DNA of 64,000 nt from Escherichia coli O157:H7 (GTDB lineage: Bacteria > Pseudomonadota > Gammaproteobacteria > Enterobacterales > Enterobacteriaceae): NCBI RefSeq assembly GCF_013167455.1, contig NZ_CP038328.1; one strand, written 5' to 3'. Of this stretch, positions 24,001 to 30,000 are shown in pieces; positions within the stretch are counted from its first letter, which is position 1; every line of letters begins with the position of its first letter. A program made the position numbers.

Positions 24001-27000
24001 GGTGAACCTGCCACCACCACCTTCCGGATTGCCGCACCGGCAGCACCGTCGCGGATTGAGCTGACGCCGGGCTATTTTCAGATAACCGCCACGCCGCATC
24101 TTGCCGTTTATGACCCGACGGTACAGTTTGAGTTCTGGTTCTCGGAAAAGCGGATTGCGGATATCAGGCAGGTTGAAACCGCAGCCCGCTATCTTGGCTC
24201 GGCGCTGTACTGGATAGCTGCCAGTATCAATATCAAACCGGGCCATGATTATTATTTTTATATCCGCAGTGTGAATACTGTTGGCAAATCGGCATTCGTG
24301 GAGGCTGTCGGTCGGGCGAGCGATGATGCGGAAGGTTACCTGGATTTTTTCAAAGGAGAAATCGGGAAAACACATCTGGCCCAGGAGCTGTGGACGCAGA
24401 TTGATAACGGTCAGCTTGCGCCGGACCTGGCTGAAATCAGGACGTCCATTACGAATGTCAGCAATGAAATCACGCAGACCGTCAATAAAAAACTGGAAAA
24501 TCAGAGTGCGGCAATCCAGCAGATACAGAAAGTTCAGGTTGATACAAATAATAACCTGAACAGCATGTGGGCCGTGAAACTGCAGCAGATGCAGGACGGA
24601 CGCCTTTATATTGCGGGTATCGGTGCCGGTATTGAGAATACGCCAGCAGGAATGCAGAGTCAGGTGCTGCTGGCGGCAGACAGGATTGCGATGATTAATC
24701 CTGCGAATGGCAACACAAAGCCGATGTTTGTTGGTCAGGGCGATCAGATATTTATGAATGAAGTGTTCCTGAAATATCTGACGGCTCCCACCATTACCAG
24801 CGGCGGTAATCCTCCGGCATTTTCCCTGACACCGGACGGGCGGCTGACGGCGAAAAATGCCGATATCAGCGGTAACGTGAATGCGAACTCCGGGACGCTC
24901 AACAACGTCACGATTAACGAGAACTGTCGGGTTCTGGGAAAATTGTCCGCGAACCAGATTGAAGGCGATCTCGTTAAAACAGTGGGCAAAGCTTTCCCCC
25001 GGGACTCCCGTGCACCGGAGCGGTGGCCATCAGGAACCATTACCGTCAGGGTTTATGACGATCAGCCGTTTGACCGGCAGATTGTTATTCCGGCGGTGGC
25101 ATTCAGCGGCGCTAAACATGAGAAAGAGCATACTGATATTTACTCCTCATGCCGTCTGATAGTGCGGAAAAACGGTGCTGAAATTTATAACCGTACCGCG
25201 CTGGATAATACGCTGATTTACAGTGGTGTTATTGATATGCCTGCCGGTCACGGTCACATGACACTGGAGTTTTCGGTGTCAGCATGGCTGGTAAATAACT
25301 GGTATCCCACAGCAAGTATCAGCGATTTGCTGGTTGTGGTGATGAAGAAAGCCACTGCAGGCATCACGATTAGCTGAATTTTATAACCCAGATACGGGCG
25401 CCAGAAATGGCGCCTTTTTTATTGCAGAAAAGCGAGAGGTAATTATGCGTAAATTATGTGCTGTTATTTTGTCCGCAGTAGTCTGGCAGGTCGCCGCTGC
25501 TACGCCAGCGAGTGCAGCAGAACATCAGTCCACGCTGAGCGCGGGGTATCTCCATGCCTCGACGAACGTTCCCGGTAGTGATGATCTGAACGGGATTAAC
25601 GTGAAATACCGTTATGAGTTTATGGACGCGCTGGGGCTGATTACGTCCTTCAGTTATGCCAATGCTGAGGATGAGCAAAAAACGCGCTACAGCGATACCC
25701 GCTGGCATGAAGATTCCGTGCGTAACCGCTGGTTCAGCGTGATGGCGGGGCCGTCTGTACGCGTGAATGAATGGTTCAGCGCGTATGCGATGGCGGGTGT
25801 GGCTTACAGCCGTGTGTCGACTTTCTCCGGGGATTATCTCCGCGTAACTGACAACAAGGGGAAAACGCACGATGTGCTGACCGGAAGTGATGACGGTCGC
25901 CACAGCAACACGTCTCTGGCGTGGGGAGCTGGCGTGCAGTTTAACCCGACCGAATCCGTGGCCATTGATATTGCTTATGAAGGCTCCGGCAGTGGCGACT
26001 GGCGCACTGACGGTTTCATCGTGGGTGTCGGTTATAAATTCTGATTAGCCAGGTAACACAGTGTTATGACAGCCCGCCGGTTCAGGCGGGCTTTTTTGTG
26101 GGGGGAATATGGCAGTAAAGATTTCAGGTGTACTGAAAGACGGCACAGGAAAACCGGTAGAGAACTGCACCATTCAACTGAAAGCCAGACGGACCAGCAG
26201 CACGGTGGTGGTGAACACGGTGGCCTCTGAAAATCCGGATGAAGTCGGTCGTTACAGCATGGACGTTGAGTACGGTCAGTACAGCGTCATTCTGTTGGTG
26301 GAGGGCTTCCCGCCGTCACATGCCGGGACCATCACCGTGTATGAAGATTCTCAACCGGGGACGCTGAATGATTTTCTCGGTGCCATGTCGGAGGATGACG
26401 TCCGGCCGGAGGCACTGCGTCGTTTTGAACTGATGGTGGAAGAAGCGGCGCGTCACGCTGAGGAGGCGAAGAAGAATGCCGGAGAGGCGGAGACATCAGC
26501 GAGGAATGCCGGCATATCATCCAGTAAGGCGGAAGCGAGCGCGGCAAATGCTGACACTTCAGCAGGGGATGCATTGGAGTCAGCCCGGCAGGCGGCAGAA
26601 AGTGCAGCCGCTGCAAAGCAGTCAGAGGATGCGTCCTCGTCCTCGGCTTCTGCGGCCGCTCAAAAAGCCAGTGAGTCATCACAAAGTGCAGCAGAAGCTG
26701 AATTGTCAAGAAAGACGGCAGAAAGTGCAGCCGGTAATGCAGCCAGGGATGCAACGACCGCAACAGAAAAAGCCCGGGAGTCAGCAGAAAGCGCACAGTC
26801 AGCGGAACAAAGCAGGATAGCGGCGGAAGAGGCCGTAAACCGAATCCCCACCGTGGTGGGACCTCCCGGGCCAAAGGGGGAACAGGGGCCCGCGGGTCCT
26901 CAGGGGCCGAAGGGTGATAAGGGAGAGCGCGGTGACACCGGCCCTGTCGGGGCAACCGGCGAACGGGGACCGGCAGGTGATGCTGGTCCGGCAGGCCCGC

Positions 27001-30000
27001 AGGGGCCGAAAGGTGACAGGGGAGAGCGGGGAGAGACCGGTCTGACGGGAAATGCAGGTCCACAGGGTCCAAAGGGAGATACCGGTACGGCAGGCCCGGC
27101 AGGCCCGGCAGGCCCACAGGGACCGAAAGGAGAAACAGGTGTGGCTGGCCCGGTAGGGGCAACCGGACCTCAGGGGCCGAAGGGCGACCCGGGAGAGACG
27201 CAAATACGGTTCCGTCTGGGGTCGGGAAACATTATTGAGACAAACAGCAATGGCTGGTTCCCGGATACAGATGGCGCACTCATCACCGGACTGACCTTTC
27301 TTGACCCCAAAGATGCCACACGGGTTCAGGGGTTTTTTCAGCATTTGCAGGTCAGATTTGGCGACGGGCCGTGGCAGGATGTCAAGGGGATGGATGAAGT
27401 GGGCAGTGATACAGGCAGAACAGGAGAATGACATGAACATACTAAAAAAACTTATGCAGCGTCTGTGTGGTTGCGGAAAGCATGATGACCGTGAACACGG
27501 GGAGTTACTTACAGCACAACTGCGACTGGGGCCGGCAGACATCCTGGAGTCAGATGAGAATGGCATTATTCCGGAGCAGGACAGGGTAATCACACAGGTG
27601 GTGATACTGGATGCGGATAAAAAGCAGATACAGTGCGTGGTAAGACCGCTGCAAATCCTACGTGCTGACGGGAGGTGGGAAAATATTGGCGGGATGAAAT
27701 AGCCGACGGGTTCACAAAAACCGGAGTCCTGCTCTGGTTTTTGTTGTCACGTATGGGGGATGTTTGTTACAGCTATTTAAGTCTGGAGTTCAAATTAAAA
27801 TAGGGAGCTTTGTTATGCCATTAACCTCAGATATTAGATCACATTCATTTAATCTTGGGGTGGAGGTTGTTCGTGCCCGAATTGTAGCCAATGGGCGCGG
27901 AGATATTACAGTCGGTGGTGAAACTGTCAGTATTGTGTATGATTCTACTAATGGGCGCTTTTCATCCAGTGGCGGTAATGGCGGATTGCTTTCTGAGTTA
28001 TTGCTTTTGGGATTTAATAGTGGTCCTCGAGCCCTTGGTGAGAGAATGCTAAGTATGCTTTCGGACTCAGGTGAAGCACAATCGCAAGAGAGTATTCAGA
28101 ACAAAATATCTCAATGTAAGTTTTCTGTTTGTCCAGAGAGACTTCAGTGCCCGCTTGAGGCTATTCAATGTCCAATTACACTGGAGCAGCCTGAAAAAGG
28201 TATTTTTGTGAAGAATTCAGATGGTTCAGATGTATGTACTTTATTTGATGCCGCTGCATTTTCTCGTTTGGTTGGTGAAGGCTTACCCCACCCACTGACC
28301 CGGGAACCAATAACGGCATCAATAATTGTAAAACATGAAGAATGCATTTATGACGATACCAGAGGAAACTTCGTTATAAAGGGTAATTGAAATGAACATT
28401 ACCCTTTATTTTATTTAATGAAACATCCTGCAAACTGATATGAATTACTGAATGAGGTTTTTATGCCTGTTACCACCTTAAGTATCCCAAGTATATCTCA
28501 ATTATCTCCTGCAGGAGTACAGTCTTTGCAGGATGCTGCCAGACTTGAAAGTGGAATAAGAATATCCATTGGTAGTGGCCAATATTCTGTTCACTATGTC
28601 CAGCTACTGGATGGATTTTCAGTTGAACCGGTGAGAGGAGGCTTACTGGATAGGCTATTGGGGCGTGAGCATCGAATGGAGAGAAGGGCTGTGGCTCTGG
28701 AAAGGCAATTAAATGGAGGTGTCGATTTTTTAAGTAGTGTTAATAACTATTTTCAGAGTGTCATGGCAGAACACAGAGAAAATAAAACAAGTAATAAAAT
28801 ATTAATGGAAAAAATAAATTCTTGTTTATTTAGACCTGATTCTAATCACTTTTCTTGCCCGGAGTCATTTTTGACATGCCCGATAACGCTGGACACACCT
28901 GAGACTGGGGTGTTCATGAGAAACTCACGAGGTGCTGAGATATGCTCTCTATATGATAAGGACGCGTTAGTGCAACTTGTTGAAACTGGTGGAGCTCATC
29001 CTCTGAGTCGAGAACCTATAACAGAATCAATGATTATGAGAAAAGATGAATGTCACTTTGATACAAAAAGAGAAGCTTTTTGTTGTAAGTGATAATTAAT
29101 GATATAAATGTAGTTTTATGTACTTTTATTTTTTACTAAAGCAAAATTAAGTTATTAAAATGGAGGGAGAGGAATGCCTGTAGATTTAACGCCTTATATT
29201 TTACCTGGGGTTAGTTTTTTGTCTGACATTCCTCAAGAAACCTTGTCTGAGATACGTAATCAGACTATTCGTGGAGAAGCTCAAATAAGACTGGGTGAGT
29301 TGATGGTGTCAATACGACCTATGCAGGTAAATGGATATTTTATGGGAAGTCTTAACCAGGATGGTTTATCGAATGATAATATCCAGATTGGCCTTCAATA
29401 TATAGAACATATTGAACGTACACTTAATCATGGTAGTTTGACAAGCCGTGAAGTTACAGTACTGCGTGAAATTGAGATGCTCGAAAATATGGATTTGCTT
29501 TCTAACTACCAGTTAGAGGAGTTGTTAGATAAAATTGAAGTATGTGCATTTAATGTGGAGCATGCACAATTGCAAGTGCCAGAGAGCTTACGAACATGCC
29601 CTGTTACATTATGTGAACCAGAAGATGGGGTATTTATGAGGAATTCAATGAATTCAAATGTTTGTATGTTGTATGATAAAATGGCATTAATACATCTTGT
29701 TAAAACAAGGGCGGCTCATCCTTTGAGCAGGGAATCAATCGCAGTTTCAATGATTGTAGGAAGAGATAATTGTGCTTTTGACCCTGACAGAGGTAACTTC
29801 GTTTTAAAAAATTAAGGTAGCAATGGCGGGTTAACTTTTCGTAAAATGAAATTAATTCTCGGTACGGCATGTAAAACGCGGCACCTCGTATGCAAGAACG
29901 TGCCGCGGTTGGCTGGTAAGCTTTTCGATAGTGCGAGTATCTAATGATTTCCAGCCGGAACTGATTCTATTGGAAAGAAATCATGGGCGCCAGATTGATT

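Follow-up and report, generated by a model that had tools for sequence, protein, structure and literature searches.

The closest described relatives of the side tail fibre gene stf, which we analysed in a prophage of Escherichia coli O157:H7 (within a stretch of 64,000 nucleotides (nt) of contig NZ_CP038328.1, assembly GCF_013167455.1, hereafter the window), are the genes for EPclA, the enterohaemorrhagic E. coli (EHEC) prophage collagen-like protein A. EPclA was defined by the domain order PfN-PCoil-Col-PfC (Ghosh 2012, PLoS One 7:e37872, PMC3368898), and Table 2 of that paper lists eight or nine copies each in the Sakai and EDL933 genomes, among them ECs1992 of Sp10 and Z2340 of CP-933R, both of 437 amino acids (aa). 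The recombinant protein is a stable trimer with collagen and alpha-helical signatures in circular dichroism (CD), and its two parts have independent melting points of 42 and 52 degrees C (PMC3368898). Rotary shadowing revealed a hinged dumbbell of 55-62 nm, and the coiled coil is supported by CD, size-exclusion chromatography with multi-angle laser light scattering (SEC-MALLS) and electron microscopy (PMC3368898). Both PfC and Trx-PfC are trimers by SEC-MALLS, and PfC permits rapid refolding of the collagen helix (PMC3368898). Expression of EPcl proteins has been reported to be linked to phage induction (Ghosh 2012). A second relative, EPclB (933W L0121, Sp5 ORF67/ECs1228, phi24B gp61), is the fibre of short-tailed Shiga toxin 2 (Stx2) phages; Sp5 ORF67 is essential and is placed at the tail by antibodies (PMC5155283), and phi24B gp61 forms six lateral fibres.

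The initial annotation of the window had described stf as truncated after a collagen-like tract, being either a short fibre with a novel small tip or a remnant left by cargo insertion. Our analysis indicates, with a probability of roughly 0.9, that the gene is not truncated and that its product is a complete side tail fibre of the EPclA type, as found in EHEC lambdoid prophages. The open reading frame (ORF) was confirmed at 26109-27431 on the plus strand (440 aa followed by TGA), and the domain order, as read from the sequence, is PfN-PCoil-Col-PfC, that of EPclA. The gene and its domains are as follows.

26109..27431, plus strand: stf, very probably a complete EPclA-type side tail fibre gene (end-to-end alignment to four phage fibres with a common stop codon)
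26109..26507, plus strand: PfN domain, aa 1-133, lambda-Stf-type collar for attachment of the fibre to the tail (PF08400; 88% identity to lambda orf-401; PDB 9E7M)
26460..26858, plus strand: PCoil segment, about aa 118-250 (composition; coiled coil taken from the homologue in Ghosh 2012)
26859..27200, plus strand: Col domain, aa 251-364, collagen triple-helix shaft (triplet count; PF01391)
27204..27395, plus strand: PfC domain, aa 366-429, globular C-terminal trimerisation domain and presumed tip (PF06820; Ghosh 2012)

The N-terminus is of the lambda type, as had been stated initially: residues 1-117 share 88% identity with lambda orf-401, which represents the N-terminal portion of Stf, and the Pfam match to PF08400 covers residues 1-133 (profile positions 1-133 of 134, E 3.1e-68). 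Residues 1-93 also matched the solved collar domain of Ur-lambda Stf (PDB 9E7M chain Ta, E 6.5e-51). The collar of Ur-lambda is built at the gpV/gpM junction from twelve Stf N-domains, which give four trimeric fibres (PMC12617516), and the 88% identity in the collar domain suggests that the window fibre would be attached in a similar manner. The Ala/Ser/Glu-rich low-complexity region noted earlier was also recovered, with 42 Ala, 24 Ser and 18 Glu among the 130 residues from 118 to 247. An Ala/Ser/Glu-rich segment of ~116 residues between PfN and Col aligned without gaps to the listed EPclA copies, and composition and homologue together make a coiled coil probable here.

The Gly-X-Y tract is indeed uninterrupted, but it is longer than the ~34 triplets first estimated, with 38 triplets in a single run (residues 251-364) and Pro at 19 of the 38 X positions. 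Its match to the Pfam Collagen family (PF01391, E 2e-18) places it far beyond chance. One Gly-Pro-Ala triplet distinguishes the 440-aa window protein from the 437-aa copies, and can be traced to a short repeat within the tract.

27088..27115, plus strand: 9-bp perfect tandem repeat CGGCAGGCC, 3.1 copies, inside the collagen tract

The repeat points to slippage as the driver of length variation among EPclA-type fibres. After the tract the protein continues for 76 residues, somewhat more than the ~70 reported before. The match to PF06820 (Phage_fiber_C) at residues 366-429 covers the whole profile (1-64 of 64, E 6.3e-34), so the C-terminus is a named domain and not a stump; an 11-residue tail (27396-27428) follows it. 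The earlier proposal of a short fibre with a novel tip was thus right about the short fibre and wrong about the novelty, since the tip is PfC and EPclA has been published.

Comparison with other phages also argues for an intact gene. Fibres of VT1-Sakai, BP-4795, YYZ-2008 and Lys8385Vzw aligned end to end with the window Stf at 95-97% identity, ended at a common stop codon and differed in length by whole Gly-X-Y triplets only; all four copies, VT1-Sakai H0004 included, thus exceed the 90% identity expected among EPclA copies. A search with the full-length protein returned numerous proteins that share all four Pfam domains, at lengths of ~283-494 aa. Some variants in that search carried no collagen, and in Shigella variants a Peptidase_S74 terminus replaces PfC. 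The exact 440-aa sequence was absent from the protein collection searched, in which near-identical proteins were present, and a search with the 76-residue C-terminus alone returned mostly partial fragments. By genome BLAST, a block made up of the end of Col, PfC and an 89-aa ORF that follows stf was found in 702 of 5426 complete E. coli genomes, with a median of 10 copies per genome. PfC itself forms a narrow family: clustering at 50% left 89 representatives, and many of these are ORF-calling chimeras. One distant relative in the representative library (P0274, 565 aa) has four PfC-like repeats in tandem (WEFxLxDG...VVVL...GILxVRxxDGxW) ahead of a collagen tract, so the PfC motif also occurs as an internal repeat outside E. 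coli fibres.

The DNA downstream of stf was said to hold effector genes. Three nleG genes are present, but they do not follow directly, as a small gene and a hairpin, both missed initially, lie in between.

27422..27426, plus strand: AGGAG ribosome-binding site for the 89-aa gene, within the last stf codons
27433..27702, plus strand: 89-aa stand-alone PfC paralogue (PF06820, phrog_576)
27714..27746, plus strand: A-tract/stem/U-tract hairpin, terminator-like, at the end of the conserved fibre module (-20.5 kcal/mol, z -4.1)
27745..27775, no strand: module boundary (end of similarity and drop in GC)
27815-28390, 28463-29092 and 29174-29815, plus strand: cargo of three tandem nleG effector genes (PF06416, E 1e-43 to 1e-47; coordinates from the Prokaryotic Genome Annotation Pipeline, PGAP)

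We aligned this boundary with two siphoviral phages (VT1-Sakai and cdtI) and one podoviral phage (AU5Stx1). Similarity spans the 3' end of stf, the junction, the 89-aa gene and the hairpin, which is conserved in all three, and stops at ~27745-27775, where GC drops from ~0.52 to 0.33-0.43 and remains low across the three nleG genes. Both the breakpoint and the GC shift are therefore ~315 nt past the stf stop, outside the gene, and the first low-GC effector gene begins ~380 nt downstream of stf. Beyond the boundary, VT1-Sakai carries ykgJ-like and dinI genes and then attR, BP-4795 has IS629, cdtI has nleH, cif and cdt, and 933W continues with further tail genes. Since the conserved DNA outruns stf and the downstream content varies by phage, the effector block appears to have been added after a complete fibre module. 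Judged from the sequence, the nleG block sits in place of the b region of lambda, with no sign of stf having been cut. At the right end of the prophage, the low-GC block that separates the fibre module from uspF, with its three nleG paralogues, has the character of a typical effector cargo locus.

The initial annotation was also correct that no lambda-like C-terminal domain or tfa gene is present. PF03406, PF07484 and PF03335, all three of which lambda has, were not found by Pfam in the window Stf, and the receptor-binding C-terminal part of lambda (Phage_fiber_2 repeats, Collar domain and Phage_fiber repeats) was not seen in it. Searching the 64-kb window by tblastn with lambda orf-314 and Tfa gave best E values of 0.049 and 0.019, both off the tail region. 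No tail fibre assembly gene of the Caudo_TAP family (PF02413) follows stf, the downstream ORF matching PF06820 only. PGAP annotation of the 99.8% identical prophage of strain FRIK1989, which has a complete lambda-like set of head and tail genes, likewise includes no tail fibre assembly gene. Because recombinant EPclA made in a laboratory strain trimerises without a phage partner and PfC nucleates the helix, the published biochemistry suggests that a Tfa-type chaperone would not be needed.

stf lies in the late tail operon, downstream of J and lom, and its product has no signal peptide or anchor. A hairpin separates stf from lom, with the stf start codon 17 nt further on.

26071..26092, plus strand: terminator-like hairpin after lom (8-pair stem, 7 G-C pairs, then a T run)

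Since this strong hairpin precedes the start codon, expression of stf probably needs antiterminated late readthrough. Two antisense ORFs, of 276 and 264 aa, run over the PCoil and collagen regions at 26332-27162 and 26799-27593 on the minus strand. They are most likely by-products of repetitive GC-rich codon content, as is lambda orf206b, and not genes.

The complete fibre can be pictured from its homologues. Three chains would make up each fibre, with the PfN domains joining a collar round the junction of tail tube and tip as in Ur-lambda. By analogy with the 437-aa homologue, a homotrimer containing a collagen triple helix and a coiled coil is expected; its shaft would combine a trimeric Ala/Ser/Glu-rich coiled coil with a 38-triplet collagen helix, hinged and ~55-62 nm long. 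As in the homologue, PfC would trimerise alone and nucleate the collagen helix from its C-terminal end, and would form a distal knob that presumably makes a reversible first contact with the cell surface. After stf come the 89-aa PfC paralogue, predicted to be coupled to it, and the terminator-like hairpin, and then the nleG cargo, inserted downstream of the complete module.

Several points weigh against this reading. We attempted to model PfC with AlphaFold2, and neither the monomer (10-row alignment, mean predicted local distance difference test (pLDDT) score 56) nor three linker-joined copies (7-row alignment, pLDDT 30) was usable; both low-confidence models contained beta strands only, in agreement with published CD data. 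A PfC profile search of PDB sequences found no solved match (best E 0.29). No experiment places an EPclA-type fibre on a siphovirus particle or has it aid adsorption there, and the authors of the phi24B work argue against binding of BamA (of MG1655) by the related tip. The assignment of the prophage to the Sp10/CP-933R type is itself inferred from the flanking genes and the gene order of K-12. The right flank consists of uspF, a frameshifted ompN and ydbK/nifJ, and the order uspF-ompN-ydbK is what we take to adjoin the right end of Rac in K-12. The best genome match was E. coli FRIK1989 (99.8% over 12.5 kb), and O157:H7 strains came next. The attB of Sp10 is reported to be the Rac site (Asadulghani 2009, PMC2669165). 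In favour of the complete-fibre reading, Sp10 possesses the full complement of morphogenesis genes and packages its DNA spontaneously, and transfer of a marked derivative to K-12 was achieved; on the other side, no infective particles could be detected from K-12 lysogens of Sp10 (PMC2669165). The flanking ompN is split into two ORFs in the window (30971-32084, minus strand) and is called a frameshifted pseudogene by PGAP in FRIK1989.

The 89-aa gene bears on a different view of how the fibre might work. Its ATG at 27433 is one nucleotide past the TGA of stf and 6 nt from the AGGAG, and the junction GGAGAATGACATG is kept in 9 of 9 copies compared, an arrangement from which translational coupling to stf is predicted. 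The protein is also known as Sp5 ORF68, 933W L0122, VT1-Sakai H0003 and 'atfT', and is labelled 'alternate tail fiber tip' in one GenBank record. Residues 28-89 constitute a second full-length PF06820 domain (E 1e-36), 35% identical to PfC of Stf, and the whole protein matches phrog_576 (1-89 of 89, E 4e-60). It occurs in 296 phage records, with at least 92% amino-acid identity in all but three, and at least 999 contigs carry its exact sequence. The pooled ratio of nonsynonymous to synonymous polymorphism (pN/pS) was 0.14 across nine copies, with the PfC part nearly invariant, so the ORF is a real gene under purifying selection. PADLOC returned no matches for Stf or for the 89-aa protein.

A programmed frameshift fusing stf to the 89-aa ORF was considered and rejected. 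The conserved AGGAG-N6-ATG fits separate initiation, and because the +1 frame is closed until 27301, a position within PfC, a shift would give no clean domain swap. Mondal 2016 (PMC5155283) found no frameshift signal and suggested that the paralogue is a recombination reservoir. A 92-aa protein on a 37-kb E. coli contig (P0056) combines half of each paralogue, the N-terminal one from the 89-aa protein and the C-terminal one from Stf PfC, and is either a recombination product of the two paralogues or an artefact of assembly or gene calling.

The alternative that survives best accepts an intact fibre but makes PfC only a trimerisation and registration knob, with host contact made by the 89-aa paralogue as an adaptor or adhesin, similar to gp38 of T2, or with no specific receptor at all. 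We consider this possible but unlikely. It would be consistent with the coupling of the two genes and the purifying selection, with the unaided trimerisation of PfC and with the failure of the related tip to recognise BamA of MG1655. The 89-aa gene also accompanies a PfC-ended fibre at every locus examined, following it directly in 8 other loci. In addition, two unique peptides of the phi24B homologue (ADGTWENIGGMK and VITQVVILDADKK, labelled gp59_start) are listed in the liquid chromatography-tandem mass spectrometry (LC-MS/MS) supplement on purified virions (bioRxiv 10.64898/2026.04.10.717836). These two peptides are entries in a supplementary table on which the main text of the preprint is silent, and they give a hint, no more, that the protein travels with the phage particle. 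Against such a role, Sp5 ORF68 is among the non-essential late genes on a K-12 host (PMC5155283), recombinant EPclA folds without the 89-aa protein, and near-invariance of its PfC part would be unusual in a host-range determinant. We regard as similarly doubtful the proposal that the paralogue is a virion protein that docks on or exchanges into the PfC knob as a tip adaptor or alternative tip. If true, two genes would make up this very common EHEC fibre module as a system, and the place of Tfa or gp38 in other fibres would fall to a paralogue of the C-terminal part of the fibre itself.

Far less probable is that Stf is mainly a collagen-like factor expressed by the lysogen at the surface or secreted (a moron) and not a virion component. 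Collagen-like proteins of other pathogens are adhesins, and this possibility was raised in Ghosh 2012. The NCBIfam matches to the Scl and Lcl adhesins, however, were weak, involved the collagen tract only and scored far below the family cut-offs. The missing signal peptide or anchor, the virion collar domain of lambda Stf at the N-terminus, the place of the gene behind J and lom in the late tail operon and the reported link of expression to phage induction all argue for a fibre. Least credible, and contradicted by the evidence, is the remnant first suggested, a non-functional stump of a longer lambda-like Stf whose receptor-binding C-terminus and tfa were lost at nleG insertion: the missing lambda-type domain and tfa and the nearby low-GC effector genes would fit it, but the C-terminal domain is complete, the stop codon, 89-aa gene and terminator are kept in phages with unrelated downstream content (some without effector cargo), the breakpoint lies beyond stf, full-length homologues number in the thousands with a homologous protein forming stable trimers, and the Col-PfC tip belongs to an essential, tail-located fibre in Sp5 and phi24B.

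Taken together, these results favour a complete EPclA-type fibre, an ordinary and already described member of a very common family; Pfam has domains for this architecture, a biochemical paper is devoted to it, and databases contain thousands of copies. The lesson for annotation is not to label a short, PfC-terminated Stf as a pseudogene; fibres of this type are expected to lack tfa, and effector cargo starts past the small PfC gene and the terminator, not within stf. Family-wide, and not for this locus in particular, the target of the PfC tip and the role of the 89-aa paralogue bear on how phages that carry effectors or Stx find new hosts.

Compared with known systems, the window stf is a mosaic of a lambda-type attachment domain and a different shaft and tip. 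It resembles lambda stf in the N-terminal collar domain (88% over 117 residues), in its place after J and lom and in its presumed use as an accessory adsorption fibre. Past residue 117, however, there is no significant similarity to orf-401 or orf-314; a collagen helix stands where lambda has long coiled coils, and a 64-residue PfC knob is found instead of the Collar/His-rich OmpC-binding tip. EPclD and the Shigella variants share the PfN, PCoil and collagen parts with the window Stf (83-91% identity over the shared region), but end in the intramolecular-chaperone S74 domain (Peptidase_S74, PF13884) where the window protein has PfC. In EPclB the collagen at the distal end and PfC differ very little from those of the window fibre and the 89-aa PfC gene follows as well, whereas the protein is longer (645 aa), has two collagen segments split by a Pf2 repeat, and carries an N-terminal domain that binds the podovirus adaptor ring and not the siphovirus tail tip. 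The closest likeness is to EPclA itself (for example ECs2717, ECs1992 and Z2340), with identical domain order, a common stop codon and the same 89-aa gene downstream, the difference being the one extra triplet (38 in 440 aa compared to 37 in 437 aa).

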